A DNA stretch of 39,612 nucleotides from a virus, in the IMG/VR virus record IMGVR_UViG_3300021449_000180, one strand, 5' to 3'. A program made the position numbers and the translations under genes. Of the stretch, positions 3,312 through 39,612 are shown piece by piece. How positions within the stretch are numbered: the first letter of the stretch is position 1; each line of letters begins with the position of its first letter. The notes under the pieces were generated by a model. That model was not told the origin of the DNA. It ran no database searches and saw only the letters and a list, made by a program, of their open reading frames with translations.

Positions 3312-4406
3312 TTAGATGTCTTGAATCACGACGAAGTTGTCGCCGCGCATCACGTGGAACCCGATTTCTTGTTTCGCCGCGAACCAGGTGGTCAGCGGGT
3401 CGTTCTCCGTCCAGGTCTGGGTCATCCAACCGTTCGCGCTGTCGACGCTGACGTCGCCGTGCGGGGCCTGCTGACCCATTTCGTTCAGGCGGTCCAGGAA
3501 CCAGGGCATGAACGCCGACGCCTGGCCGGGGGCGGTGATGACGATGTTGCGGACGTTCGTGGTGCCGTCGTGCGGTTCCAGGACGTTGTCCCGGGCCGCG
3601 TTCGCGGGGTCCGCCACGACGTCGCCGGATGCGTCGACGGGTTCGCCGTCGCTGTTGAACCGCGGGAGTTGCGTGCGGATGGGCCTGATCTGGTCGATCT
3701 GGAAGCTGTCGGCCAACTGCTGTTCGGTCAGCGCGGCGATGCTGTCGTAGTCGCTGGCCAGGTCGTCGTTCAGCTTCATGTCGCGGACGACGTTGGGACT
3801 CATGTAGGCCGTGATGCTGCCGGCCTGTTCCAGCGCCGACCCGTCCTGGCTGATCAGGCTTTCAGCGTCGATGAAGTCGTTCAGCGGTGTGCTGTTCGCG
3901 GAGTCGCTGTACGCGGTCGACGGCGTCAGGACGTGCGAACTGGGGATTTCGGGGTGGGCTGTCGCGCCCTCCGTCCCGATGATCCCGTTGATGTCGCCGT
4001 TGATCGTGCCCTGCCAGGCGACCTGCGCCCGCGTCATCAGGACGTCTTCCATCAGCGCGTCGCTGATGGCGTTGAACAGGTTCAGGATTTCGCGCTGACT
4101 GTTCAGTTCGGTGTCGACCCCTTTCTCCGCCTGAATCTTCTTCTTGAAGGTCGACACCGACAGGTCGCGTTCGCCCAGGTCGCCGATGTCGCCGACGGGG
4201 CTTTCGGACGCCAGGTCCGTCTGCCGCATCGTCGTCCGCAGCCCGTCCATCGTGAAGTGCGTTTCACGACTGTCGGACAGTTCGACCAGCGGGAAGATTT
4301 CCGACGTGACCAGTCGGTTCCCGCCGTCGATCTGCTGGAGTTGCCGGACGATACGGTTCTGGATGGCTTCGGGGCTTCGAAGGTTCGCTTCGCGTAGCGT
4401 GAACAT
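3312..4406 (-). CDS. Major capsid protein (HK97 fold, lambda gpE-like position)
   Basis: 364 aa from the internal ATG at 4406 (MFTLREANL...), 3 nt after the upstream stop. The track ORF extension to 4457 is Arg/His-rich. The gene order protease/scaffold, decoration protein, capsid mirrors lambda C-Nu3-D-E. Confidence 0.75.
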   Translation of the reverse strand: MFTLREANLRSPEAIQNRIVRQLQQIDGGNRLVTSEIFPLVELSDSRETHFTMDGLRTTMRQTDLASESPVGDIGDLGERDLSVSTFKKKIQAEKGVDTELNSQREILNLFNAISDALMEDVLMTRAQVAWQGTINGDINGIIGTEGATAHPEIPSSHVLTPSTAYSDSANSTPLNDFIDAESLISQDGSALEQAGSITAYMSPNVVRDMKLNDDLASDYDSIAALTEQQLADSFQIDQIRPIRTQLPRFNSDGEPVDASGDVVADPANAARDNVLEPHDGTTNVRNIVITAPGQASAFMPWFLDRLNEMGQQAPHGDVSVDSANGWMTQTWTENDPLTTWFAAKQEIGFHVMRGDNFVVIQDI

Positions 4407-4408
4407 GA

Positions 4409-4975
4409 CTATAGTCCCCCGGTGATGATGACCGCCGTCCTGCCGCCGACGCCCCATTCGCGGGCGATGGTGGTGAACACGCTGCCGTCAGGGAAGGCGT
4501 CGTGGCCCAGCGCGATGTTGATGTCGTTCGCGCTGCCGTTTTCCAGCGTGCCGTCGCCGGCGATGCCCAGGTCGTTCGTGACAGCGGCGTCGATCCCTGT
4601 CGTTGTGGGGCCGCCGTAGGCTTCGATGTCGCCACCGTCACCGACTTCGACCAGGTCCCCGGGGGAGGGGTCGTAGCCGTCGTCGGTCGGCATCCAAAGG
4701 ACGTGTACGCCCAGGATGACGGTTGCGCGTCCGACGCTGTCGCCAGCGGCGAAGTCGGCTTCGCTGCTGTTGCGGTCGCGGAGGTCCTCCGGCGTGTTCT
4801 TCAGAAGGCCGACGAACGCGGCGTCCGTGCCTTCGACCAGTTCGACCTGCGGGCCGTCGGGGGCTTCCCCGACGACAGCGACGCCCTGGCCTTCGTCGGC
4901 GACGTCGCCGTTGCTGTCGGCCAGCACTTCGACGTCGACGACGTGTCCGGGCGTGTAGTGGTACTGGGTCGCCAT
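4409..4975 (-). CDS. Putative head decoration protein
   Basis: 188-aa G/D/V-rich ORF immediately upstream of the capsid gene, the position of lambda gpD and DUF2190-like proteins. Confidence 0.45.
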   Translation of the reverse strand: MATQYHYTPGHVVDVEVLADSNGDVADEGQGVAVVGEAPDGPQVELVEGTDAAFVGLLKNTPEDLRDRNSSEADFAAGDSVGRATVILGVHVLWMPTDDGYDPSPGDLVEVGDGGDIEAYGGPTTTGIDAAVTNDLGIAGDGTLENGSANDINIALGHDAFPDGSVFTTIAREWGVGGRTAVIITGGL

Positions 4976-8667: not shown

Positions 8668-9783
8668 CTATGCTCCGGGGGCGGTATGTCCGTGCTGGAT
8701 CGACAGCGGCGTCGGCTGGAATTCCGCCTGATCGACCACCTGCGGACGATAGGACTTCGTCGACATGATCGTCTGAACGAACCCATCCGCGACGTCGTCC
8801 TGCGTCAGCGGCACCCGGTCGCCAACCTTCAGCACGGGCCGGATACCTGACCGACAATAGGGATGCAGCGGCGGGATGAACCACGGTGTGTCGACCATGT
8901 CGACGACGTGTTCGTCCATCCGCCGGCACAGGTCGGTCGTCTTCGTGCCGATAGTCGCGTCATAGACACCGTACCGAAAGCCGTTCCGCAGGTAGCGTTT
9001 CCGTGCCGCGGTATTATAGGCGTCCTGGACGCTGTCGTGCGCGATCAGTTCAGCTTTCGTCCGCGCGGTCTGACCCGTGACACCACGTTCCTGCCGGTCG
9101 CTGGGGTCGCCGCCGTCGACCACGACCTGGACGCGTTCCGCCAGTTGCGGGACGGTTTCGTTCTGCGTCAGCCCCAGTCGGAGCTGTCGCGTGATACGGT
9201 CGCCCAGTTCTTCGGCCAGACTGTCGCTGGTCGCGCCGGCGTCGGTTGCGGTCCTGGTCCCGGACAGCAGCCCGGCGTCAACCTTCCGTATATGTCGAAG
9301 CCACTCCCGGTCAGTCCCATCGACCCGCGGTAGCCCCCGGAGTTGATCGGTGTCGACGTCGTCCGGGAGCGTCGTTTGCATCTGGTCGAACGCCGCCCTG
9401 GCCGCCCGCCCAGCGGCGATGCGATGCCGTTCATCCAGCCACGAAACCAGGCCTTCCCGTAGCCGCTGGGCCGCCAGCATCGTGACAGCCTGATTGACCC
9501 GCCCCGGGCCTTCCGGCCCGTCCATGATCGTCTGCACGTCGTTCTCCCGTAGCCACGCCTGGATTTCCTGCATGACCGACCGGATCGACGCCCGCGCCCG
9601 CTGCCGCGCCCGTCGAAGGTCAGTGACGGTCGTCGTCGCCGCATCACGCCCACCGCCATCATCGTCGCCGTCGTCCTGGGCGTGAACCCGCTGATCGTGG
9701 TGGTGATGGTGTTGACGGCAGGCCAGTCCGGCGTCGATCAGGGCGTCGGACGGCAGCGACGGGTCGGGACGGGTCTGCGCCAC
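8668..9783 (-). CDS. Head morphogenesis protein, Mu F / SPP1 gp7 family
   Basis: 371 aa. TARTKAELIAHDSVQDAYNTA ... DLCRRMDEHVV ... PPLHPYCRSGIRPV matches the MuF signature (ArTe..., D..C, PP.HpnCR). It lies directly after the portal. GTG start. Confidence 0.8.
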   Translation of the reverse strand: MAQTRPDPSLPSDALIDAGLACRQHHHHHDQRVHAQDDGDDDGGGRDAATTTVTDLRRARQRARASIRSVMQEIQAWLRENDVQTIMDGPEGPGRVNQAVTMLAAQRLREGLVSWLDERHRIAAGRAARAAFDQMQTTLPDDVDTDQLRGLPRVDGTDREWLRHIRKVDAGLLSGTRTATDAGATSDSLAEELGDRITRQLRLGLTQNETVPQLAERVQVVVDGGDPSDRQERGVTGQTARTKAELIAHDSVQDAYNTAARKRYLRNGFRYGVYDATIGTKTTDLCRRMDEHVVDMVDTPWFIPPLHPYCRSGIRPVLKVGDRVPLTQDDVADGFVQTIMSTKSYRPQVVDQAEFQPTPLSIQHGHTAPGA

Positions 9784-13667: not shown

Positions 13668-13892
13668 TTAGTTCCCGTCGTCGACCAGCAACGCCAGCCC
13701 CGCCGCGATGACCGGGATGACGACCAGATGGAACAGCAGCAGTTCTGCCAAGCGTTCACCGTACCGGTTCACGTACACCGTGGTCTGATAGTCGTGGATG
13801 TAGGCGACAGCCCAGATGAGATACGTGATCAGCGACAGGGCGAACATGGCCCCGACAGACTGGACCTTCAGGAACAACCGCCAGTCCATCAC
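13668..13892 (-). CDS. Small membrane protein (two predicted TM helices)
   Basis: 74 aa with hydrophobic stretches VGAMFALSLITYLIWAVAYI and LLLFHLVVIPVIAAGLALLV. Its start overlaps the TerL stop (GTGATG). Confidence 0.6.
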   Translation of the reverse strand: MMDWRLFLKVQSVGAMFALSLITYLIWAVAYIHDYQTTVYVNRYGERLAELLLFHLVVIPVIAAGLALLVDDGN

Positions 13893-15502
13893 CCGACGAC
13901 CGCCCCTGGGTCGATCACTTCAGCGTCACCTTCGAAGCCTTCATAGCACGCCATCATCGCGCCATCAGCGATGTCCGGGCTATGCCCCAGATGATTCGGT
14001 TTCTTCACGTCGTCCTTCCCCTTCAGGACCAGCACGTCCTCCCCGCGGAACGACCGTTCATCCAACCGGTACACCCGCGCCGCCACCCGTAGTTCCCGTT
14101 CCAGGTCGCTGTTCGGCGGGACCAACAGCCGCCCGTCCTTCAACGCGTTCCCCAGGTCAACCGCCGCTTCCGTCCGCTTGTTCCGGTACCGAACGTCCTC
14201 CCGCGGGTCGTCGTCCCGACTGTCGACTTCCGACCCCTTAAATCGGCGGACGCGATCCCGCGCCCGACGGACGTTATCCGCCACCCCGGACCCCTCCCCG
14301 ATGGCGTCGATCAGGAACAACCCCCGCCTGGGGAGGCGGTCGTCGGTCGCCAGGAACAGGTCTTCGTTCTCCGGGTGATCGTTCACCCGGTCCTTCAGGA
14401 CGACGTCCAGCAGGCCGGTGTCCCAGCGGGCGACGATGACCGTCCGGTCCCCGCCGTCACGGGCGACGTCCCCGCCCATCTGCTGGACGACCGTGCCTTT
14501 CGCTGCTGATGGTGTCGCGCCGTCGTCAGTGACGACGCGGTACATTTCGACCGCCTGATCGACGTGGCGTTCATACCAGGGCCGGAGCGTTCCGCGGCCT
14601 GTCGGCGGCATCACGCCCAGGCGTTTCCGGTACCAGCGCGGGTCCAACGTTCGCCAGTCGTCCCGCGCGACACGCTTCCCGTCTTCCGTCGTGACGGCCT
14701 GTCGGACGTCGTCGACGCCAGGCCAGGGGCGTCCGTTCCAGGATTCGTAGTCTTCTTTGATCAGGTCCAGTTCGACCAGCCCCGCGATGCCATCGTGGTC
14801 GTCGCCATCAGGGAGTTCCCCCAGGTCGCGCTTGACGTTGTGGCTGTCGAAACTGTCGAATTCGATGGTGTGCCAGCGCGGGTCGTCCCACTTCTGAAAC
14901 GCGACGTCACCCCGATCCTGCGGCGGGTTACAGATGGCGACGCAGACGTCGTCCGTCGACGATGCGGTCGACGTCGCCGCGTCGAAGTGGCCCGCGCCGA
15001 CGTCCGGTTTGTCGGCTTCGTCGATAACGACGAACGCCGCCCGCCCATGCCGCCCCTCTAAGTTGCGGGGGTCCCGCGGGCTTCTGAACTTGATCCACCA
15101 CTCCGGGAATTCGTCGTCCGGGAATTCGATCCGGGGAGCGTTTTGCTTCGCCTCCGCCTGAATCGGATACGCTTGTTTCGCGCGTTGATGGATCGTCTGA
15201 AGGAACGGCCAGGACGTGTCCTTCAGCGTTGGATAGTTCCCCGACGTCGTCAGCCCGACGCTGTTCAACCGGGTCATCACGTAGTGATACTGCGCCAGCA
15301 TCACCCCGGCGGTCTTCCCGGTCCCGTTCCCTGACCAGACCAGGACGCGGTGATGGTTCTGGCAGGCCCGCAGTATCTCTTTTTGCGTGTCGGCCAGGTC
15401 GAAGCCCAGGTCCTGGTAGAACTGGATCGGTCGGTCGCGGTAGAAGTCGATTAGGTCCGCCGCGTCGTCAACATCATCGACGCGGTTCCCGTCAGCGGCC
15501 AT
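13889..15502 (-). CDS. terL: Terminase large subunit
   Basis: 537 aa. Walker A VWSGNGTGKTAG and Walker B AAFVVIDEADK. Size and position are typical of TerL. Confidence 0.85.
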   Translation of the reverse strand: MAADGNRVDDVDDAADLIDFYRDRPIQFYQDLGFDLADTQKEILRACQNHHRVLVWSGNGTGKTAGVMLAQYHYVMTRLNSVGLTTSGNYPTLKDTSWPFLQTIHQRAKQAYPIQAEAKQNAPRIEFPDDEFPEWWIKFRSPRDPRNLEGRHGRAAFVVIDEADKPDVGAGHFDAATSTASSTDDVCVAICNPPQDRGDVAFQKWDDPRWHTIEFDSFDSHNVKRDLGELPDGDDHDGIAGLVELDLIKEDYESWNGRPWPGVDDVRQAVTTEDGKRVARDDWRTLDPRWYRKRLGVMPPTGRGTLRPWYERHVDQAVEMYRVVTDDGATPSAAKGTVVQQMGGDVARDGGDRTVIVARWDTGLLDVVLKDRVNDHPENEDLFLATDDRLPRRGLFLIDAIGEGSGVADNVRRARDRVRRFKGSEVDSRDDDPREDVRYRNKRTEAAVDLGNALKDGRLLVPPNSDLERELRVAARVYRLDERSFRGEDVLVLKGKDDVKKPNHLGHSPDIADGAMMACYEGFEGDAEVIDPGAVVG

Positions 15503-15625: not shown

Positions 15626-16159
15626 TCACGCGTCACCCGCCGCCGGTGGCGTCGCCTGCGCCTGCGAGACGGTCTGCACCCAGGCCCGCAGCGGACGATC
15701 ACCGACGACGTCGTCCGGGAGGTCATCCTGGTAGACATTCGCTTCCGCCCGGGGGTCGCCATCGTCGGCGTCGATGTTGTGGTGGATGCAGACGCTGAAC
15801 GGCCAGCGCGACGGGTCCCCAGGGATAGAGTAGTTCCCCGCGCTGGTCCGGTCCAGGGCCGCCGGCGCGGCCAGGTAGAACGACCGGTCGCCCTTCCACC
15901 GCGCAACGATGACGCTGGCAGCGTCGAACTGGTCGCCGAAATGCTGAAGTTCAGTGACTTCCCGGCCCGTGGGGTTCCGGGGCGGCCCGCCGGATTTCAG
16001 TTCGCCACAGATGACGACGCCGCCCGATGCAGCCAGGACGTCCGGCGCTTCCTCCGGTTGCGTACCGGACGCGGGCGACCGGATGCCTTCCCAGCCCAGC
16101 GCCGATAGGCAGTTCAACAGGTGTCGTTCCTGTTCAGTCCCGTCCATCATCCACTCCAT
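15626..16159 (-). CDS. hjc: Holliday junction resolvase, archaeal Hjc type
   Basis: GTEQERHLLNCLSALGWEGIRSPASG...PDVLAASGGVVICGELKSG carries the Hjc E...D...E-x-K pattern. The start is taken at the internal ATG 16159 because the upstream track extension is Arg/Ser-rich. Confidence 0.7.
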   Translation of the reverse strand: MEWMMDGTEQERHLLNCLSALGWEGIRSPASGTQPEEAPDVLAASGGVVICGELKSGGPPRNPTGREVTELQHFGDQFDAASVIVARWKGDRSFYLAAPAALDRTSAGNYSIPGDPSRWPFSVCIHHNIDADDGDPRAEANVYQDDLPDDVVGDRPLRAWVQTVSQAQATPPAAGDA

Positions 16160-16307
16160 CCGGGTTGAGGCCGGGGATGCGGCGTTCGATACCCCGGGCG
16201 ATGCACGCCGTCGCCGTGAGTAGGACGCCGGCGTCGCCACGCTGGTCGTCGTGGTCGTCGTTGCGGTGGGTCAGTAGTGCGGTTTCGCCGTCGTCACTCC
16301 CCACCAT
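16134..16307 (-). CDS. Possible small acidic protein (57 aa)
   Basis: It fills the gap between the 142-aa gene and hjc. The first two thirds show the strong third-position G/C pattern of real genes here. It overlaps both neighbours. Confidence 0.3.
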   Translation of the reverse strand: MVGSDDGETALLTHRNDDHDDQRGDAGVLLTATACIARGIERRIPGLNPDGVDDGRD

Positions 16308-18912: not shown

Positions 18913-19365
18913 CTATGTGTCGCCCCCGTCGGCGTAGTCGTTCAGGCCGCGCTGGGGGGTGTCCAGGCTGTCCAGGTGGCCGTCGGCTTTAATGACGACC
19001 GTGGTGGACTTCGGGATGTAGCAGCCCCAATTCGACCCGTCGATGGTCGGGTTGTTCTTTCGGTGGAACTGCGTGACGCGGACGGCTTTCGGGCTGTAGT
19101 CCTCCCAGTACCCGACGGCCAGGCGTCCGCCGTCGGCGTCGACGTCGATCACGCTGTCGGCGTCAAGTCGGACGACGTCGTGGTCGTCTTCGTCGCGTTT
19201 GAAGTCCGGGAGGATGAACAGGCTGTCGTGGCTGGTTTCCCGGAGGACGGTGACGACGGCGTCTTTTTCGGGGCCGGTCAACATCGGGGCTTGATCGACG
19301 TCATCCCAGGACCGGACCGTCACTGTGCGTAGTTCGACCGTGTCGTCGTCAGGCATCGTGATCAC
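18913..19365 (-). CDS. Hypothetical acidic protein
   Basis: 150-aa ORF. The probable ATG (MPDDDTV) lies in the junction GGTGATCACGATGCCTGA. Confidence 0.6.
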   Translation of the reverse strand: MITMPDDDTVELRTVTVRSWDDVDQAPMLTGPEKDAVVTVLRETSHDSLFILPDFKRDEDDHDVVRLDADSVIDVDADGGRLAVGYWEDYSPKAVRVTQFHRKNNPTIDGSNWGCYIPKSTTVVIKADGHLDSLDTPQRGLNDYADGGDT

Positions 19366-20784: not shown

Positions 20785-21094
20785 CGGTATCACCGGGGGC
20801 GTAGGCCGCCATGAGGAACTGTCTGTCGACCGGTGCGTCGTCGACGTGGACCAGATATGACTGGGCGCAGCGGGCGCAGACGTCCGCGGCGTCGGGCGTT
20901 CCGGCCAGTTGATCCCAGACGTCCGGGACGTGACCGCAGCCGCTGGCGTAGTTCGTCGCGTTCGTGGTGCCGCGGGCCAGCATCGACTGTCGTCCGAAGT
21001 CGACCAGGTGGGCCTTCGCGCCGGTCGGTGTTTCAGCGAACTGGACATCGCTATCGCGGGTCGGGATGTCGTCAGGGTCAGCCATCGCCGTCAC
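20777..21094 (-). CDS. Small Cys-containing protein, paralogous N-terminus to 26857-27444
   Basis: 105-aa track ORF. The likely ATG is at 21085 (MADPDDIPTRD). It contains NYASGCGH...VCARC. Confidence 0.55.
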   Translation of the reverse strand: MTAMADPDDIPTRDSDVQFAETPTGAKAHLVDFGRQSMLARGTTNATNYASGCGHVPDVWDQLAGTPDAADVCARCAQSYLVHVDDAPVDRQFLMAAYAPGDTDG

Positions 21095-21566
21095 CGCCTT
21101 GGAACGCGTTCATGTTCTGCTGGCCGGGGGACCCGTCGGTGGATGGCGTCCAGTCAGGATGCCGTGGTGGGGTCTTCCGTCCGTCGGCCCAGTCGCGGAA
21201 TGGGACGCCGAACCGGGCGTTGATGTCGATCCAGTCTTCCCCGCGGCGCTGCCGGGGGCTGTCGTCGGGGTCGGGCGCGTCGCCGTGTTCCGTGACCGCG
21301 TCGGGGTGGAAGACGTACCGGTAGCCGCCGTCCTGGACGAATAAGAGTAGGAGGGCGTCGGTGTCGGTGGCGCGCTGGGCGACCTTCGTGTGCATGAAGG
21401 ACGCGTCGCCGGCCTTCAGGTACTGCTTCGCGGTGACGATGAAGGGTTGGTCGTGGACGGTGACGCGGAACGCGTACCGTCCGACGTCGTCGTCGTACCA
21501 GGCGTCGATGGCGGTCTGCCGGGTTTTGAAGAAGTCGGCGGCGTCCGATAGTAGGCCTCCGGTCAT
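21078..21566 (-). CDS. Hypothetical protein
   Basis: 162-aa minus-strand ORF. It overlaps the upstream gene by 4 nt and ends GGDGDG inside a junction cassette. Confidence 0.6.
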   Translation of the reverse strand: MTGGLLSDAADFFKTRQTAIDAWYDDDVGRYAFRVTVHDQPFIVTAKQYLKAGDASFMHTKVAQRATDTDALLLLFVQDGGYRYVFHPDAVTEHGDAPDPDDSPRQRRGEDWIDINARFGVPFRDWADGRKTPPRHPDWTPSTDGSPGQQNMNAFQGGDGDG

Positions 21567-23626: not shown

Positions 23627-24085
23627 TCAGGAAGCGTCGACGTCGACGTCATCCAGTGGGTCGCGGACCTGGTAGACCATGTCGACGACGTATTCCTGGA
23701 CGATGTCGGGGTCCGGGCGGCCCGGTGCGTGCATCAGCGTCCGGGCGACGATGCTGTCGACGATCCGGTCCACGTCGCCGTCGTCGGCCTGGTCGATGGC
23801 GACTTCATCCTGGGTGATCTGGTCGTTCGCGGTGTCGGTCCAGTCCGGCAGGTCGTCGTCATCCAGCGCGTCCATCGTCGCCGCGTACACGCGGGGTTCC
23901 GGGACGTCGATCTTCGCGGCCAACGTCGGGACGTCGACGTCGGGGACGCTGACGTCGACTTCGACCTTCGTCAACAGTTCGTTCGTCCCCAGTTCTGACC
24001 CGGTCGGCTTCGACTGCCGGGTCCGGTGCGACCCGTCGCGCCAGTCAATGATCAACCACGCCGTGATGGTTTTATCGTCAGACAT
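23627..24085 (-). CDS. Hypothetical acidic protein
   Basis: 152-aa ORF that overlaps the upstream gene by 8 nt. Confidence 0.6.
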   Translation of the reverse strand: MSDDKTITAWLIIDWRDGSHRTRQSKPTGSELGTNELLTKVEVDVSVPDVDVPTLAAKIDVPEPRVYAATMDALDDDDLPDWTDTANDQITQDEVAIDQADDGDVDRIVDSIVARTLMHAPGRPDPDIVQEYVVDMVYQVRDPLDDVDVDAS

Positions 24086-24491
24086 CGCCGTCGCCCCCGC
24101 TGAACGCCGTCATTTCGTCCACCGGGTGTGCGTCACCATTGACCTGCTGGCCCAGTCGCTGGTACAGGTCAGCGAGGTCGGCGGCCAGGGCGTCCAGGTC
24201 TTCGGCGTCGGCCCATACCGCTGCGGCGGCGACGGCGGTGATGGCGTCGTCGCCGTCTATTGGGGCGTCGGGGTCGATGTCGATGTCCTGGGTGGTTGGG
24301 CCGTTGATGGCGACTTCGAAGACGTAGCGTCGTTCCGTCGCCTGGCCGGTGGCGACGTTGATGATGCCACTAAGTCCGCGTGCGTCGCGGGTTACTTCCT
24401 TCAGTTCGAATTCGCGGGCGGTGCCGCCCGCGGCTTCGATAGCGTGCTGTACGTCGTCTGCGGCTTTGAAGTCGATGTCGGTGTCGTTCAT
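24078..24491 (-). CDS. Hypothetical acidic protein
   Basis: 137 aa from the internal ATG 24491 (MNDTDIDFKAADD...). ATGA overlap with the 368-aa gene. Confidence 0.55.
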   Translation of the reverse strand: MNDTDIDFKAADDVQHAIEAAGGTAREFELKEVTRDARGLSGIINVATGQATERRYVFEVAINGPTTQDIDIDPDAPIDGDDAITAVAAAAVWADAEDLDALAADLADLYQRLGQQVNGDAHPVDEMTAFSGGDGDV

Positions 24492-25594
24492 GCGTCGATA
24501 GGGTCGGCGTCGTCGTTGTTCAGTAACGGTTCGGCGTGGCCCTGCCGGGGGTCGTAGCCAGCAGCGGCCAGGGCGTCGATGATGTCCTGGGTTGCTGGCG
24601 TCGACCCCAGGTCGACCTGATTCGCTGCGGCGGCGATGGACTTCAGGTCGTTGTAACTCCCCTGGTCGCTGTACCACGCTTCCCAGGCCGACGTCCGGGC
24701 TTCGACGCCGACGTCGGCGTCAGCGGGGGCGGCTTCGACATCGCGGCCATCTTTATCGCTGGGGACGACCGTCTCCGGGTCGCTTCCCCCAGGGGTCGCG
24801 TCGACGTCAGCCGCTGCGTCGTCGCTGTCGCGGAACCGGCCCAGGCCGGTGTCGTCTTCGTGCGACCGCGGCGGTTCGATGTCGACGACGTCCAGGGTCC
24901 CCGCGGCGGCGTGATCCTGGACGTACTCCGGGACCGTCCCGTCTTCGTGCTGGGTGTAGACGACTTCCTGAAGATAGGCATACCCGATGACCGCCCACCC
25001 GACGTCGGTGTCGGGATGGATGACCCAGACGCGCGTGATCCCGGGTTCAACGACGGGCGGGGCCTGCCGCTTCGACAGCGGGATGGCTTTCGATATACCC
25101 AACGTGACGGCTTCGTCAATGAAGTCCCCCGGGTCAGGGTAGTGGGTCTTCCCGGCCCGCATCAGGATGTCGGCGTGCGGTCGCTTCCCGTGCGCCGCCA
25201 GGTCGATTTCCCCGAAGTGATCAGCGTCGAAACGGCGGGCGTCCAGCCGGTCGACGTGCCGCCGGGCTTCACTCCCCGGTGTGGCGTCCGGGCTGTCGTA
25301 CAGGCCCTTGTCGACCATGTTCTGGACGGCTGTCGTGTCGGTCGCGTCGCCGGGGTATTCGCGGACGAAGTCCGATAGGTCGTCCAGCGCGAACTGGGAC
25401 GACAGGCCGTCGAACCGCAGGTACCCCCGCGTGAATTGGCCGTCAGTCCCCATTTCGCGGTACGGTACTGGCGGGTCCAGGCGGACGAACGACGGGAGGA
25501 CGCCGTCGGGGCTGCCGATGACGCCCCGGATGTACGCCTTCCCGTGCGACAGGAACCCGCATCCGCGTTCGACGTTCGCTATGGTTCTGGTCAT
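24488..25594 (-). CDS. Conserved-looking protein of unknown function next to PCNA (candidate replication protein)
   Basis: 368 aa, the largest early product. N-terminus MTRTIANVERGCGFLSHGKAYIRG. The globular part is about 250 aa, followed by an acidic linker and a small C-terminal domain. No catalytic motif recognised. Confidence 0.6.
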   Translation of the reverse strand: MTRTIANVERGCGFLSHGKAYIRGVIGSPDGVLPSFVRLDPPVPYREMGTDGQFTRGYLRFDGLSSQFALDDLSDFVREYPGDATDTTAVQNMVDKGLYDSPDATPGSEARRHVDRLDARRFDADHFGEIDLAAHGKRPHADILMRAGKTHYPDPGDFIDEAVTLGISKAIPLSKRQAPPVVEPGITRVWVIHPDTDVGWAVIGYAYLQEVVYTQHEDGTVPEYVQDHAAAGTLDVVDIEPPRSHEDDTGLGRFRDSDDAAADVDATPGGSDPETVVPSDKDGRDVEAAPADADVGVEARTSAWEAWYSDQGSYNDLKSIAAAANQVDLGSTPATQDIIDALAAAGYDPRQGHAEPLLNNDDADPIDA

Positions 25595-25602
25595 CGTTCG
25601 AT

Positions 25603-26505
25603 TTACTCCGACTGAATCCGCGGGGCCAAGAGGAACTGGCCTGACGCGTTCCAGTCGGCGTGATTGAACTGTAGCATCGTCGGGTATTCGATCCCGAACT
25701 TCAGGGTGACGCGGTCCATCTTCGACCGCTTCAACCCCTTCGTCATGTCCCGCAGGTAGTCCAGGCTGAACAGCGAACCCTGGCCGTCACCGTCTTCAGC
25801 GCCCTCTATCCAGGCGGCGTTCGGGAAGACCGCGGTGTCGGCGCGGTCGTCGCTGTCGCTGTCAGCTAACTGGACGTCCCTGGACATGGTTGATCCGACG
25901 ACCAGCGCCGATCCGTCGATGGCAACGCCGGCGTGGTCGTGGCCGTCCGTCAGCGACTTCACGGCGTCGTTCAGCGCGTCGATCCCGGGCGTCGCCCGAA
26001 ACGGCAGGTCGATCCCGGGGACGTCTGGTTCGTCGCGCACGGCGTCGGGGTCGATCAGGCTGAACACGGTGACGCGCTTCATCTGCTGGTCCGGCCTGAT
26101 GACGGCGACGCGCATCCGCGGGACGTCACCCCGGGGGTCCAGGATGTCGATGCGGACGGGGTCGTCGTCCGGCATCCGGGCGAACGACAACGCGGACGTC
26201 AACGTGTCGAAGTTGACGCCGACGGTGACGTCGCGGTTGACCTGGAAGCCGCTGAACCCGTCCGCGTGGACCGTCAGATCGATCATGCCGACGTTCGCCG
26301 GGTCGACCGCAGTGATCGACAGGCCGTCCGGGTCGACGTTCAGTTTCGCCTCTTTGACCAGCGCGGTCGGGAGCCGTAGAAGGGACCGGATCGGTTTCCC
26401 GGTCGTGGCGAACGCCGCGGCGCTGTCGTCCGGGGCGTCGAACCCTAAGTCGTCGCCGGTGTCTTCCGGGACCTGCGTTCTCCCCGCGTCAGGCATCGGC
26501 ATCAC
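25603..26505 (-). CDS. pcn: PCNA (DNA sliding clamp), archaeal type, with a ~45-aa N-terminal extension
   Basis: LNVDPDGLSITAVDPANVGMIDL..., SLFSLDYLRDMTKGL and the C-terminal FLLAPRIQSE match archaeal PCNA hallmarks. The likely ATG is at 26496. Confidence 0.8.
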   Translation of the reverse strand: MMPMPDAGRTQVPEDTGDDLGFDAPDDSAAAFATTGKPIRSLLRLPTALVKEAKLNVDPDGLSITAVDPANVGMIDLTVHADGFSGFQVNRDVTVGVNFDTLTSALSFARMPDDDPVRIDILDPRGDVPRMRVAVIRPDQQMKRVTVFSLIDPDAVRDEPDVPGIDLPFRATPGIDALNDAVKSLTDGHDHAGVAIDGSALVVGSTMSRDVQLADSDSDDRADTAVFPNAAWIEGAEDGDGQGSLFSLDYLRDMTKGLKRSKMDRVTLKFGIEYPTMLQFNHADWNASGQFLLAPRIQSE

Positions 26506-26854
26506 CCTGGGGGACGACGCCCTTCGCGTGGCGTTCGCCGGTCTTCGATATGACGACGTCGACGGTGTCGCCGACCGCCAGGTGCTGGTTGTCGGTGTTC
26601 TGGATGAACGTAGCGACGCCGTCGATGCGGCCCATCGGGTCGCCTTTCTTCGTGTTCGTTCCGTCGTCTTCGATGACGGCTTCGTAGGTCGTGCCGACGG
26701 TGAGGACGTCGTCGACGTTCGACACCTTCTGGCCGTTCGGCAGGGCTTCGACCGTCGACCGGAGGTCGTCCAGTTCGGTGGTGACCGTCACCTGTAGGTC
26801 GTCGATTCGATTCAGCAAGTCGTCCGTCGTGACGTGATCGTCAGGTCCTTCCAT
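26489..26854 (-). CDS. TRAM-domain protein
   Basis: 121 aa. KGDPMGRIDGVATFIQNTDNQHLAVGDTVDVVISKTGERHAKGVV fits the TRAM beta-barrel pattern (G.g.a.idG...fi....vGd.v.v.i.k....a.a). Confidence 0.5.
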   Translation of the reverse strand: MEGPDDHVTTDDLLNRIDDLQVTVTTELDDLRSTVEALPNGQKVSNVDDVLTVGTTYEAVIEDDGTNTKKGDPMGRIDGVATFIQNTDNQHLAVGDTVDVVISKTGERHAKGVVPQGDADA

Positions 26855-26856
26855 AG

Positions 26857-27444
26857 CTATAGGGGTCCGCTGTCGCTGTAGCCGAAGGTTGCGTCTAAGA
26901 GGACGATGCGGCCAGCGTCGGCGTCGATGCCGATGACGTCCCAGGGGCCGACGCCGACGTACCGTTGGCCCAGCCGGCGGACGGCGGTGACGCTGACGTC
27001 AGGGTCGCAGGTGACGGTCAGTTCCGTCGGTCGCGTGCGGCGAACGGTGTAGTCGCCTGCTGGGCGGTCTTCGTCGATGACCGCCGCGGCGCTTTCGGTG
27101 GACTGGGCGACCGCGTGCCGCTGCCGTCGATCCAGGCGTTCGATGATGTCGTCCTGGATGGCGTCCGGGTCGGTCAGCGTGACGAAGGTCGCGGAGCCAA
27201 CGCCGTCACGCCGGCACTCCGGGCAAACCCCCGACCGTTCGATGCGGCCCGCCGCTGATCGGCCTGTCTGGGGCGACAGCGGCGTGCCGCACCGGTGACA
27301 GTCGTACTCCATCGGCGTCCCCGTTCGCGGCGTTACGTTCTCCGTGTCGGTGCCGGCGTCGTCGTGGGCGTCCAGTTGGTCGGTGATCATATCGACGTGT
27401 GCGTCGCGGGTCGGGATGTCGTCGGGGTCAGTCATCGTCATCAC
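26857..27444 (-). CDS. Zinc-ribbon protein, paralogous N-terminus to 20777-21094
   Basis: 195-aa track ORF. The likely start is MTDPDDIPTRD (ATG 27435). It contains CHRCGTPLSPQTGRSAAGRIERSGVCPEC. Confidence 0.6.
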   Translation of the reverse strand: MMTMTDPDDIPTRDAHVDMITDQLDAHDDAGTDTENVTPRTGTPMEYDCHRCGTPLSPQTGRSAAGRIERSGVCPECRRDGVGSATFVTLTDPDAIQDDIIERLDRRQRHAVAQSTESAAAVIDEDRPAGDYTVRRTRPTELTVTCDPDVSVTAVRRLGQRYVGVGPWDVIGIDADAGRIVLLDATFGYSDSGPL

Positions 27445-27697
27445 CGTCCAGGTCGCCCGGCTGGACCCGACGCGCCAGGTCGACGACAGCCGCTTCGGGC
27501 GGGTGGTCGCCAGTCAGATATTCCATGCCCTGTCGGTGGTAGTGCGCCGCTTCGTCGAACGTCGCGCCCTTCGCCTTCAGGATGTGTTTATCCTGGTCCC
27601 TGGTCCCGGTGCCGCGCTTCAGTTCCGTCGTGATGCTGACCCCGTGGTCGGTGCGTTTCACTTCCTGCTGGTCAATGTCGTCAGTGTCGTCAGTCAT
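27428..27697 (-). CDS. Hypothetical protein
   Basis: 89-aa ORF with ATGA overlap to the upstream small gene. Confidence 0.55.
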   Translation of the reverse strand: MTDDTDDIDQQEVKRTDHGVSITTELKRGTGTRDQDKHILKAKGATFDEAAHYHRQGMEYLTGDHPPEAAVVDLARRVQPGDLDGDDDD

Positions 27698-34653: not shown

Positions 34654-37062
34654 TTATCGGGTTTCCTGTCGCCGCGTCCGACGGGTGTTCTGTCGGTCCT
34701 GTCGGTCCTGGTTCTGTTCGACAGCGTCTTCGATGAACCGCGCCAGCGGGTTGTCGCCCTGGACGTCCAGCACCGCGCGGACGGCCTGTTCGTTCTGCTG
34801 TTGCTGTTGTTCCCGGTTGATCGACCGGCGTTCGGCGTCCAGCCCGGTGTCGACGTCGACGTCGTCCAGCGTCCCGACGTTGACGCCGTCCACACCCGGG
34901 ATTTCGCTTACTTTCGCAGCGACATCGTCCAGCGTCGACAGGAACGCGTTGATCGCGTCGACCGCGCTATTGATGAAGCCTTCCAGGGCGTTCTCCATCA
35001 CGCTGATCGCGCCGTTCCAGACGCTCAGCAGGACGTTGTAGACGGTGTCACCCCAGACCTGTATCTGCGTCAGCATCGTTGCCAGCGCCCCGACCAGGAA
35101 GTCTATCATCGCGGTGAAGGCGTCCTGGAACAACCCGCCGATACCGGTCAGGATGCCGGCGAACGCCTGCACTAACTGCGGTCCCCAACCGCCGACGATC
35201 CCCAGGATGCGGTTAATGTACCGGTCGACGAACCCGGCGATGGCGTCCCAGGCTTCACCCCAGTCGCCCTGTAGAATGTTCAGGAAGACCAGGACGGTCG
35301 TGATGATGGCGTCCAGCGCCGTCCCGATGACGGCGATGATGATGTCGAAGGCGAACCTGACGACCGCCATGATGGTTTCACCGTGCGCCTCCCAGAACGC
35401 CGCTAACGCCAGTAGGGTGGGCCGGACGATGGACATGATCGCGTCAATGGTTTCACGCGTTTCGCGGACTATATCATCGAAATTGGCCGCCCAGACCCGC
35501 GCCAGTTCGTTGATTAATGGGGCGGTGAAGTTCAGTAAGACGAACCTGATGACTGGCAGAACGACGTTTCGAAGGATGTCAACGACCGATTCCATCGCCT
35601 CTATCACCGTCACCGCGAACGCCGCGAAGTCCTCCACCGACAGCGCGCCGCTGATGGCGTCACCGGCGGGCTGTATCGCGGAAAGGAAGTCTTCCACGAC
35701 ACTGATGACGGCCTGCACCCCCTGCACGATGCTGTCCACAAGCCCGGACACGGCGTCGCCGCCGCCCAGTTCCTGGAACGCGACGCTGAAATCCCTGATG
35801 AACGACGTCACCGCGTCGATGACCGGCGACAAAGAATCGACCAGGTTGCGGAACGTGTCCATCAGGCCGCCCAGGGCTTCGTTCGTGGCCTCTTGGATGC
35901 CCATAAAGTTCGCCCGGTACGCCGCCGCGAACGCCGCCACGGCGGCCACGGCCACCCCTATCGGTCCGGTCAATGTGGCGACTGCGGACGCGACGCTGAA
36001 GATGGCCGGCGCAGTAATCGCCGCCGCGACCGCCAACCGCCGCAGGCCGTCGTCCAGCGACAGGACGAATTCGGCGACGCCGTCGATGATGTCCGCCAGG
36101 TTAGCGATGGCTGGGAGGACGATGGTCGCCGCGACGATCCCCAGTTCGTGCAGCGTCGGGAGTAAGTCCGCGAACGACCCAGCGATGGCCATCAGCGGGT
36201 CGGTCAGTCGTTCAGTTGCCCGCGTCATCGCGTCCCAGATGCCGGGGCCGTTCTGCATCAGCCACTCCATTACGTCGATCAACTTTGGGAGGGCGATTTC
36301 TGCCAGGTCAAACAGGAACCCGGTCAGCATTGGGATGGCTTCGGCGGCGGTCCCGCCCAGCTCCCGGATCGTTTCAGCGAACTGGTCCAGCGGCCCCAGG
36401 CTGTCGACGATGGCCTGGACCAGTTCCGGCAGGGCGCGGACAGCATCGACCAGCAGCGGACCGAACACGTCCCCCAGCGGTTCGATGATCTCCATGATTT
36501 CACCGCGGACGTCCTGGAACGCGGCTTTTAGTTCATCCATGTGCGTGACGACACCGACCGCGGTCAACCCGCCCAGGACGCCCGCCAGCCCGACCGCTGC
36601 CGCCGCGACGACGCCCAGGACTGACGCCAGCGGCAGCAGGATCGTCGACAGCGTCAGCAGACTGGGGATCAGCGACAATACCGCGACGGTCGATAAAGAG
36701 GACATAGCGACCGACAGGCCGCCCGTCGACACGGTCAGGCGGCTGAACAGCCCGGACGTGACGGCGGCGCTACGCCCGGCATCGTCCAGTTCGTCCGCCG
36801 CTTCATCAGCGCGGCTTTGAACCACCTGCATCGCCGCCGCCAGTGTCTCTGCGTCGCCTGTCGTTCCTTCGATGGCGTCGCCGGCGACCGCCGCTGACGT
36901 CGTCGTGTCGTCCAGTTCGTCCCCGACTTCATCCATCGCCGACTGCGCCGGTTGGGCTGACCGGGACAGGTCCCCCAGTTCGTCCCCGACGTCATCGACG
37001 GCCTGCTGGGCCGCCTCCGTGAACGCGTCGATCAGTATCTCTACTTTGGCGCTTTCCGGCAT
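34654..37062 (-). CDS. Tape measure protein
   Basis: 802 aa, alpha-helical and Ala/Leu/Val-rich with long hydrophobic runs (VAMSSLSTVAVLSLIPSLLTLSTILLPLASVLGVVAAAAVGLAGVLGG). It is preceded by two small overlapping genes. Confidence 0.85.
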   Translation of the reverse strand: MPESAKVEILIDAFTEAAQQAVDDVGDELGDLSRSAQPAQSAMDEVGDELDDTTTSAAVAGDAIEGTTGDAETLAAAMQVVQSRADEAADELDDAGRSAAVTSGLFSRLTVSTGGLSVAMSSLSTVAVLSLIPSLLTLSTILLPLASVLGVVAAAAVGLAGVLGGLTAVGVVTHMDELKAAFQDVRGEIMEIIEPLGDVFGPLLVDAVRALPELVQAIVDSLGPLDQFAETIRELGGTAAEAIPMLTGFLFDLAEIALPKLIDVMEWLMQNGPGIWDAMTRATERLTDPLMAIAGSFADLLPTLHELGIVAATIVLPAIANLADIIDGVAEFVLSLDDGLRRLAVAAAITAPAIFSVASAVATLTGPIGVAVAAVAAFAAAYRANFMGIQEATNEALGGLMDTFRNLVDSLSPVIDAVTSFIRDFSVAFQELGGGDAVSGLVDSIVQGVQAVISVVEDFLSAIQPAGDAISGALSVEDFAAFAVTVIEAMESVVDILRNVVLPVIRFVLLNFTAPLINELARVWAANFDDIVRETRETIDAIMSIVRPTLLALAAFWEAHGETIMAVVRFAFDIIIAVIGTALDAIITTVLVFLNILQGDWGEAWDAIAGFVDRYINRILGIVGGWGPQLVQAFAGILTGIGGLFQDAFTAMIDFLVGALATMLTQIQVWGDTVYNVLLSVWNGAISVMENALEGFINSAVDAINAFLSTLDDVAAKVSEIPGVDGVNVGTLDDVDVDTGLDAERRSINREQQQQQNEQAVRAVLDVQGDNPLARFIEDAVEQNQDRQDRQNTRRTRRQETR

Positions 37063-38797: not shown

Positions 38798-39612
38798 TCA
38801 GTACGCTCCCGTGACGCCGTTCGTCAGGGTGACTTCGACTTCCGACCCCAGCCCGCCGACATCGACCAATGCCCGGAATTCGACGTCTTCGGCGACCAGG
38901 TCGTTCTGGTTGATCTGGGCTTCGTGCGTGTTCACCGTACACTTCGGCGCGTCCCAGTCCAGGATGTACGCTGCGGACGTGTCGCTGATGGTTTCTGGCG
39001 ACGTCCAGGTCGCGTTCACCCCGACCGTCGCCAACCGTTCCTGGACGTCCGTCGCGTTCGCCGCGCCCAGGAACTGATCGAACAGCGTCCGGTCTTCGAA
39101 GTCCAGCGTCGCTGTCATCGACACGACGCGTTCCCCGATGTCAACCTTCCCGGCGGTCCGGGCGTCCCTGATCAGGGGGTCCAGGTTGTTTTCGATGGAT
39201 GCGCTGAATTCCTGGACGTCCGGTTCTTTCGACGCTCCGGCGATGTCGAACGCCGCGTCGTTGAACCGGAAGTTTCGAAGGTCGCTGTAGGATGGCGTTG
39301 CCGAATTGACGTCCGGGTCCGGGCCGGCGGCGACCACGTCCACTGACGCTGTCAGCTTTTCTTCCGCCGTGTGCGACAGTTCCAGGGTGTCGACACCGCA
39401 GCCCAGATGCCGGACGACGTCCGTGTCGCGGTCAATCTCCATCGACAGCGCGGGAAGCGTGTCCGTCGGGGTGTAGACGTGGTCGCCGACTTCGTCCGTG
39501 CCGTCGCCGTCAGGGTCGCGGGCGGTGAACGATTCGGTTCCCAGTGCGCCCAGTAGCAGTAGCCCCAGGCCGTTTTCGGGGTTCGCGGGGAGGTCCAGCG
39601 ACCCTTCGTCGG
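38798..39612 (-). CDS. Major tail (tube) protein, 3' part of the junction-spanning gene
   Basis: The track ORF 38798-39442 stays open upstream to the window edge (hand translation DEGSLDLPANPENGLGLLLLGALGTESF...) and joins 1-248 in frame via the 55-nt overlap. Confidence 0.6.
   Translation of the reverse strand, partial: DEGSLDLPANPENGLGLLLLGALGTESFTARDPDGDGTDEVGDHVYTPTDTLPALSMEIDRDTDVVRHLGCGVDTLELSHTAEEKLTASVDVVAAGPDPDVNSATPSYSDLRNFRFNDAAFDIAGASKEPDVQEFSASIENNLDPLIRDARTAGKVDIGERVVSMTATLDFEDRTLFDQFLGAANATDVQERLATVGVNATWTSPETISDTSAAYILDWDAPKCTVNTHEAQINQNDLVAEDVEFRALVDVGGLGSEVEVTLTNGVTGAY
39558..39612. repeat. Second copy of the 55-nt terminal direct repeat
   Basis: Identical to bases 1-55. 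Confidence 0.95.

Follow-up and report, generated by a model that had tools for sequence, protein, structure and literature searches.

How small clamp-only archaeal viruses seize the host replisome is an open question. The virus genome IMGVR_UViG_3300021449_000180 (39,612 bp; the whole of this stretch of DNA was analysed and is referred to below as the window) carries three neighbouring genes, which encode a TRAM-domain protein, the sliding clamp PCNA and a protein of 368 amino acids (aa). The last of these belongs to a conserved, clamp-linked family with an enzyme-like residue signature, a tail resembling the PCNA-interacting protein (PIP) box and no recognisable fold. No description of the family was found in the papers or annotations consulted, and it represents the new part of the present analysis as well as a specific candidate, open to testing, for the viral function that is missing.

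The clamp and the replication genes of the window

The window has direct terminal repeats, and its record is rated 100% complete. Its G+C content is approximately 65%, its proteins are acidic, almost every gene is carried by the minus strand and its nearest cultured relatives are haloarchaeal tailed viruses; it is a complete genome of such a virus, with structural genes as its large open reading frames (ORFs). The TRAM, PCNA and 368-aa genes were found at the positions and with the lengths given in an earlier reading of the same DNA (the original prediction), all on the minus strand and closely packed, the TRAM gene being the first (Table 1). The PCNA start codons overlap the stop codon of the TRAM gene, a gap of 8 nt separates the PCNA gene from the 368-aa gene, and the ATGA overlap through which the latter had been proposed to be coupled to the next gene was verified in the sequence. 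The trio may form a section of a long, densely packed early operon.

The assignment of the 300-aa protein to PCNA was borne out by profile searches. Pfam PCNA_N reached 37.5 bits versus a cut-off of 20.3 (E 2.2e-9), and the NCBIfam sliding-clamp model NF002222 aligned residues 39-300 with profile positions 11-245 of 245 (E 9.8e-41, under the curated equivalog cut-off); PCNA_C scored 13.9 bits, under its threshold of 23, and the C-terminus reads FLLAPRIQSE as claimed. Judged by these matches, the protein is a sliding clamp along its whole length. In an alignment of the window protein with 43 relatives (A3), the DPANVGM motif, the interdomain connector loop and the C-terminal LAPRIQSE are retained in common with cellular PCNAs, and invariant columns include P153, R157, P160 and P163 in the connector loop IDPDAVRDEPDVPGIDLP and A294-P295-R296 near the C-terminus. 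As DPANVGM and the loop are retained together with the C-terminal LAPRI, the partner-binding site of the clamp appears to have been kept.

An acidic N-terminal extension of PCNA was also present, with a length of approximately 29 aa instead of the approximately 45 aa first suggested: in A3, cellular PCNAs begin near residue 30 of the window PCNA, and position 11 of the NCBIfam profile corresponds to residue 39. The motif D-L-x-F-D-A-P-D-D of this extension recurs in viral-type homologues of 283-337 aa (P0138-P0167), and such conservation within the viral PCNA subfamily indicates that the start codon was not mis-called. The extension could serve as a partner-docking peptide or as a peptide folding back onto the clamp. 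On a quick maximum-likelihood tree generated by IQ-TREE, the window PCNA was placed in a divergent viral clade (Shimodaira-Hasegawa-like approximate likelihood ratio test, SH-aLRT, 99), which also shows insertions of 6 aa and roughly 20 aa relative to cellular PCNA. The clamp may represent an old, divergent viral PCNA lineage in which the partner-binding loop and pocket have been kept.

Six-frame family searches of the window, for which the controls were positive in Haloferax volcanii, detected no DNA_pol_B, MCM, Prim-Pol, primase small subunit or Cdc6_C, and scans of approximately 40 window ORFs against Pfam, PHROG and NCBIfam revealed no further replication enzyme. At the sensitivity of these searches, the earlier statement that no polymerase, helicase, primase or initiator is encoded was upheld. 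The Walker-A motif [AG]xxxxGK[ST] occurs just twice in the whole genome (15955-15978 and 37693-37716), and no non-terminase P-loop ATPase was found in the window. The description of the module as reduced to a PCNA therefore holds for replisome genes but not for DNA metabolism in general, where an Hjc-type Holliday-junction resolvase had been overlooked (Pfam Hjc, E 9.9e-11, 41.9 bits versus a cut-off of 21.1; NCBIfam Hol_resolv_Hjc, E 1.2e-11), which is the only other recognisable DNA-metabolism enzyme in the window. One Walker-A-like string within the Hjc ORF, GTPRAGKS, is probably fortuitous. Clamp-only replication modules have already been published for haloarchaeal tailed viruses (bioRxiv 10.1101/2025.02.15.638363), and the module itself is already known and not new.

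The upstream neighbour of PCNA was confirmed as a TRAM-like protein, since its residues 52-113 match Pfam TRAM (PF01938) above the threshold (31.8 versus 21 bits, E 1.3e-7). A helical or acidic stretch of about 50 aa makes up the N-terminal part of the protein and precedes a C-terminal TRAM (OB-like) nucleic-acid-binding domain; the best NCBIfam match of the protein is the standalone archaeal PyTRAM RNA chaperone (E 2.9e-7, under the equivalog cut-off). A TRAM homologue was also found near a family member and PCNA in another locus (L007). Most simply, the TRAM protein would be a small single-stranded nucleic-acid binder co-produced with the clamp and the 368-aa protein.

Table 1. Positions of the genes, domains and motifs discussed in the text.
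Feature	Coordinates	Strand	Basis or remark
TRAM protein, 121 aa	26489..26854	-	Pfam and NCBIfam profile matches
PCNA sliding clamp, 300 aa	25603..26505	-	GTG start; ATG alternatives at 26502 and 26496
Acidic PCNA N-terminal extension, ~29 aa	26419..26505	-	Alignment A3; motif DLGFDAPDD
368-aa protein, HHTV-1 gp52 family	24488..25594	-	Homologues without name or Pfam domain
N-terminal globular domain, residues 1-245	24860..25594	-	AlphaFold model, conservation
PIP-box-like motif, D248-T-G-L251-G-R-F254	24833..24853	-	Acidic disordered linker, model pLDDT 38-61
Second conserved linear motif VVPSDKDGRDVEA, residues 276-288	24731..24769	-	Alignment A1, AlphaFold model
C-terminal four-helix domain, residues 297-360	24515..24706	-	Model pLDDT 91-96; motif YNDLK..A....D.G..P....I.DAL
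Hjc-type Holliday-junction resolvase	15626..16240	-	Just upstream of the large terminase gene
Large terminase	13889-15502		Structural gene, library match
Tape measure	34654-37062		Structural gene, library match
Major head protein	3312-4457		Structural gene, library match
Tail tube	38798-39610		Structural gene, library match
Mu-F-like protein	8668-9783		Structural gene, library match

Domains and tail motif of the 368-aa family

The 368-aa protein, whose N-terminus reads MTRTIANVERGCGFLSHGKAYIRG, gave no match in Pfam, PHROG or NCBIfam, in agreement with the original prediction that no motif could be assigned to it. A total of 34 close relatives and 105 representatives of clusters at 50% identity were collected, which are metagenomic or viral throughout; none of them is named or has a Pfam domain. 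A pattern scan of the GTDB representative genomes revealed no relative. The members from cultured viruses are HHTV-1 gp52 and HRTV-25 gp77.

The architecture of the protein was derived from a family alignment (A1) and two AlphaFold models. The N-terminal globular domain (N-domain) was modelled from a 104-sequence alignment with a predicted local distance difference test score (pLDDT) of 93.2 and a predicted template modelling score of 0.91. Within it, R10, C12, Y21, E161, T187 and H193 are invariant wherever aligned among the 104 sequences, and R116 and D142 are conserved in 103 of them, so that these polar residues stay fixed despite an overall identity of approximately 30-40%. Because eight invariant or near-invariant polar residues form a pattern typical of an active site, the N-domain is considered a putative catalytic domain of unrecognised fold.

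Several structure-based approaches were applied to this domain. When the whole model or the model of the N-domain was searched against the PDB with Foldseek, nothing was returned at E <= 0.001; rows for sortase and Brx1 had probabilities of <= 0.07 and were lost on re-alignment, and a six-frame Sortase search was empty. In an exhaustive comparison with 48,161 chains by VIA-align, the best Z for the N-domain was 3.0 (the C-terminal domain of the CglI H-subunit); according to the documentation of this method, models that lack a clear match usually reach Z 7-8. Weak similarity to SRA/PUA-like readers was observed at Z 2.0-3.0, including 6f1s (Z 3.0, root-mean-square deviation (rmsd) 4.8, 110 residues aligned), 3q0b (Z 2.5) and 4ygi (Z 2.4); a six-frame SAD_SRA search of the window found no match. 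Searches of the ESM Atlas gave template modelling (TM) scores of <= 0.31 by shape and no usable match by features, nothing meaningful was obtained when profiles from A1 and a second alignment (A2) were searched against the sequences of solved structures, and HHTV-1 gp52 was the sole match in a BFVD structure search. The N-domain would probably add a new protein fold.

Downstream of the N-domain, the linear motif VVPSDKDGRDVEA is kept in A1 even at 30-38% identity (P0029-P0034) amid variable flanks, and is predicted to form a small beta-hairpin with strands at residues 276-278 and 286-288. The C-terminal four-helix domain showed weak VIA-align matches to the SAP region of FAN1 (Z 3.5, rmsd 3.1, 50 residues aligned, 22% identity) and the N-terminal domain of Rho (Z 3.0, rmsd 3.0, 46 aligned), as well as marginal Pfam matches to SAP (E 0.064) and Ish1 (E 0.0096), each in one of 22 members. 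It is possibly a DNA-binding module of the SAP/HeH type. Many members of the family consist of the N-domain alone and do not have the helical module.

Rearranged and fused forms were also identified. In distant members (P0118-P0137), a block like residues 135-220 is placed before a block like residues 5-70, and the swapped order of these two conserved blocks indicates a circular permutation. In one member (P0128), the family domain is fused to an N-terminal SprT-like metalloprotease and lies 1.2 kb upstream of Prim-Pol on a tailed-virus contig. Another member is fused to DUF4326, a predicted enzymatic domain that has been reported in fusions with components of replication and restriction-modification systems.

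Most members contain a [LIVM]-x-x-[FWY] motif 8-25 residues past the N-domain, in an otherwise variable acidic tail. Examples include DTGLGRF (window), HQGLDSF (HHTV-1), QSDVADF, QNGLEEYA and AEKLSEFE (short forms, extreme C-terminus). The core [LIVM]xx[FWY] was present in 46 of 78 non-redundant tails versus 10.5 +/- 2.8 in shuffled tails (maximum of 21 in 2000 shuffles); a stricter form was found in 40 of these tails (5.7 expected) and a form with leading Q in six (0.4 expected). Among the short forms, 17 of 33 carry the motif in the C-terminal tail. It has been reported that archaeal PIP boxes are typically terminal and that haloarchaeal ones are relaxed at the aromatic positions (PMC2737543). 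The motif occurred in seven of ten PCNA-linked and two of seven unlinked loci, numbers too small for significance. The segment EDDTGLGRFRDSDD is a candidate PCNA-binding peptide of the 368-aa protein.

Two other proteins of the window contain similar strings. A 150-aa protein (18913-19365, minus strand) ends in ...DTPQRGLNDYADGGDT, with Q-x-G-L-x-D-Y in acidic surroundings, six residues before the C-terminus; the motif closely resembles that of the 368-aa family, and the protein is a second candidate clamp partner, for which no homologues were found in the phage collection or the fetched loci. The N-terminal QTAIDAWY of a 162-aa protein resembles a canonical PIP box but was not relied on, since it is conserved in part (I-x-x-W-Y in three of six sequences) and is probably buried in a folded helix.

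Linkage to PCNA and possible roles of the 368-aa protein

Among 19 distinct genomic contexts of the family, a member and a PCNA gene were found on the same strand and <=3.5 kb apart in ten (the window, HHTV-1, L007, L008, L010, L012, L013, L017, L018 and L020), and in L008 and L010 they are immediate neighbours. The family gene is upstream of PCNA in some contexts and downstream in others, and the linkage holds at 31-55% identity with shuffled gene order. When 22 viral PCNA loci were examined in reverse, a family member was detected <=5 kb away in all four with a divergent PCNA and in none of the 18 with a canonical-length, host-like PCNA. On the PCNA tree, nine of the 12 linked PCNAs group in a single clade (SH-aLRT 99), the others forming two long branches (HHTV-1 with L012, and L008), and none of the 19 host-like viral PCNAs is linked. 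Other members of the family have a Prim-Pol or MCM gene 1-2 kb away. The 162-aa protein (21078-21566, minus strand), a homologue of HHTV-1 gp64, accompanies the 368-aa family in seven or more loci (L006, L007, L010, L012, L017, L020 and HHTV-1).

Based on the PCNA synteny, the enrichment of the PIP-like motif, the retained partner surface of PCNA, the residue conservation, the DNA-related fusions and the Prim-Pol or MCM neighbours, the 368-aa protein may be a clamp-associated factor acting on DNA, an interpretation in which its PCNA binding, activity and substrate are what we infer and to which we attach about even confidence. The virus would rely on the host replisome, its clamp being its only replisome gene. 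The N-domain of approximately 245 aa, with its invariant Arg, Cys, Tyr, Arg, Asp, Glu, Thr and His, would carry out chemistry or specific recognition, the PIP-box-like DTGLGRF of the flexible acidic linker would dock the protein on PCNA, either viral or host, and the small C-terminal helical module may contact DNA. Of the two roles named in the original prediction, that of a clamp-associated enzyme thus received real support from the conserved synteny, the enriched motif and the invariant residues.

A number of observations weigh against this interpretation. The term enzyme draws on residue conservation, and no fold, cofactor site or substrate can be assigned to the putative catalytic domain, and the signals that place the C-terminal domain with the SAP/HeH type are marginal. 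The window sequence D-T-G-L-G-R-F-R (248-255) has neither the Gln nor the second aromatic residue of the canonical Q-x-x-[LIM]-x-x-[FY]-[FY] and, read by its letters, is PIP-like only; the strict motif is also missing in three PCNA-linked loci (L008, L013 and L018). The complete genome of HRTV-25 has a homologue without the motif and no PCNA of its own. Moreover, the PCNA-linked label needs just two to three changes on the tree, implying few independent events, and synteny among related viruses can stem from the vertical inheritance of a block of early genes as a unit and not from function.

These last points lead to the strongest of the alternatives, that the 368-aa protein is non-replicative, acting in early host takeover or anti-defence (for example, as a reader of DNA modification) and co-inherited with PCNA in an early block. 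This is unlikely in our view, though it deserves serious consideration. In addition to the few changes required on the tree, it would account for the nine contexts without a nearby PCNA, including HRTV-25, and for the sole recurring structural neighbours of the N-domain, which are at noise level and SRA/PUA-like (CglI H, Z 3.0; SUVH5 SRA, Z 2.5; TagI, Z 2.3), such domains serving restriction enzymes as readers of modified bases; the fusion partner DUF4326 has also been linked to NAD/ADP-ribose conflict systems. On the other hand, simple co-inheritance fits poorly with a PCNA adjacency that survives changes of gene order down to approximately 30% identity and with the strong enrichment of the PIP-like motif, the other neighbours are replication proteins and not defence genes, and no anti-defence match was obtained in the libraries searched, among which PADLOC was not included.

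A more specific possibility, which we consider distinctly unlikely, is that the N-domain is a new-fold DNA enzyme on a virus-specific clamp, supplying clamp-only haloviruses with the missing step of replication start or processing. For example, it might nick or covalently attach to DNA via the invariant Cys/Tyr-His-Glu centre, generating a primer or a recombination substrate, and the SprT-like protease fused to some relatives would free the covalent protein-DNA intermediate.

The second role named in the original prediction, that of a novel initiator, would have the 368-aa protein recognise or process the origin through the N-domain, and perhaps the C-terminal module, and recruit the clamp and the host replisome. 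No recognisable initiator is encoded in the genome, the family adjoins whichever replisome component the virus has (PCNA, MCM or Prim-Pol), the invariant Tyr together with His, Glu and Asp would suit a nicking enzyme, and the C-terminal module may bind DNA. On balance, however, the proposal is not supported: the protein has no Walker-A/AAA+ motif, winged helix, Cdc6_C or HUH-type His pair, Foldseek and VIA-align found no fold like that of known initiators, members with the N-domain only are many, and no known origin or iterons lie beside the gene. An initiator is accordingly regarded as clearly improbable.

Least probable of all is a clamp regulator without enzymatic activity, which would inhibit or divert host PCNA or, as an adaptor that is not an ATPase, hold the viral clamp on viral DNA: the PIP-like peptide on a long flexible tail, the precedent of TIP of Thermococcales (a PIP-bearing, proposed PCNA inhibitor; PMC4929162) and the virus-specific extra N-terminal and internal segments of the partner PCNAs, which could allow selective binding, are in its favour, but a domain of 245 aa in which eight polar residues are invariant or nearly so is more than a regulator would require, and an enzyme better explains why members are fused to a protease and to a domain predicted to be phosphatase-like.

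If the 368-aa protein is indeed a clamp-associated factor, it would add one more archaeal PCNA partner of unknown activity to a short list; if the family is merely co-inherited with PCNA, the finding shrinks to a well-delimited domain of unknown function. An orthologue is present in the cultured pair HHTV-1/Haloarcula hispanica, which makes genetics and biochemistry feasible.

Comparison with known systems and neighbouring genes

HHTV-1 is the type species of Clampvirus (Madisaviridae) and shows the PCNA-only pattern. Its gp52, annotated only as hypothetical, is a true homologue of the 368-aa protein, with 43% identity over residues 2-243 (tblastn E 7e-50) and a Foldseek match of its model (R4TGE3) to that of the 368-aa protein at E 5e-26 and TM 0.86. 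It lies two genes from the viral PCNA (gp54) and has the same motif after the domain, HQGLDSFE. HHTV-1 likewise encodes an Hjc and homologues of the 152-aa and 162-aa proteins of the window (p152 and p162). On the other hand, the gene order is opposite, with the family member ahead of PCNA, gp53 is not a TRAM protein, and the HHTV-1 PCNA forms a separate long branch outside the PCNA clade of the window.

Similar modules have been described in other haloviruses. DHTV-3, -5 and -8 are small tailed haloviruses in which PCNA is the sole recognised replisome part and has been proposed to recruit the host replisome (bioRxiv 10.1101/2025.02.15.638363). In CGphi46, as in the window, the annotation shows PCNA as the sole recognised replisome component. 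The descriptions of DHTV-3/-5/-8 and CGphi46 mention no conserved clamp partner, and the PCNAs of CGphi46 and HATV-3 are host-like and lack a family member within 6 kb.

Among cellular proteins, NreA is an archaeal PCNA-binding repair protein (Giroux and MacNeill 2016) of approximately 400 aa with unknown biochemistry, whose terminal PIP box is essential for function; it has been suggested to act directly on DNA, and no viral Nre homologues are known (PMC4929162). NreA is the closest functional analogue of the 368-aa protein and not family kin, as no Nre_N was detected at E <= 1 in the six-frame search (control positive in Haloferax volcanii) and no Pfam match was found. The SRAP proteins HMCES/YedK have an invariant Cys, Glu and His and a PIP box in a disordered tail, are thematically linked to SprT/Spartan proteases and need Cys at position 2 for their chemistry. 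The 368-aa family resembles them in its Cys/Glu/His set, its PIP-like tail and one SprT-like fusion. An assignment to SRAP was rejected: C12 is internal, behind a variable leader of 10-70 aa, a six-frame search for SRAP was empty at E <= 1, and the structural neighbours of the N-domain in Foldseek and VIA-align included no SRAP structure.

Several observations concern other genes around the trio. The match of p137 (24078-24491) to RNase HII (E 0.034 only) was taken as noise. A gene for a PadR-family transcription regulator adjoins the 368-aa homologue in L007 (6152-6493) and L006 (4385-4711), and there is no PadR gene in the matching position of the window. An 89-aa protein (27428-27697, minus strand) is a member of DUF7389 (E 4.9e-18), a family also found upstream of the 368-aa homologue in L006, L010 and L012. 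The 152-aa protein (23627-24085, minus strand) has a strong match to PHROG 21750 (E 1e-45), with DNA-level matches in phiH and PhiCh1 and protein-level matches in HHTV-1 (gene 58 region), L006, L016 and L017, and is a widely conserved halovirus early protein.

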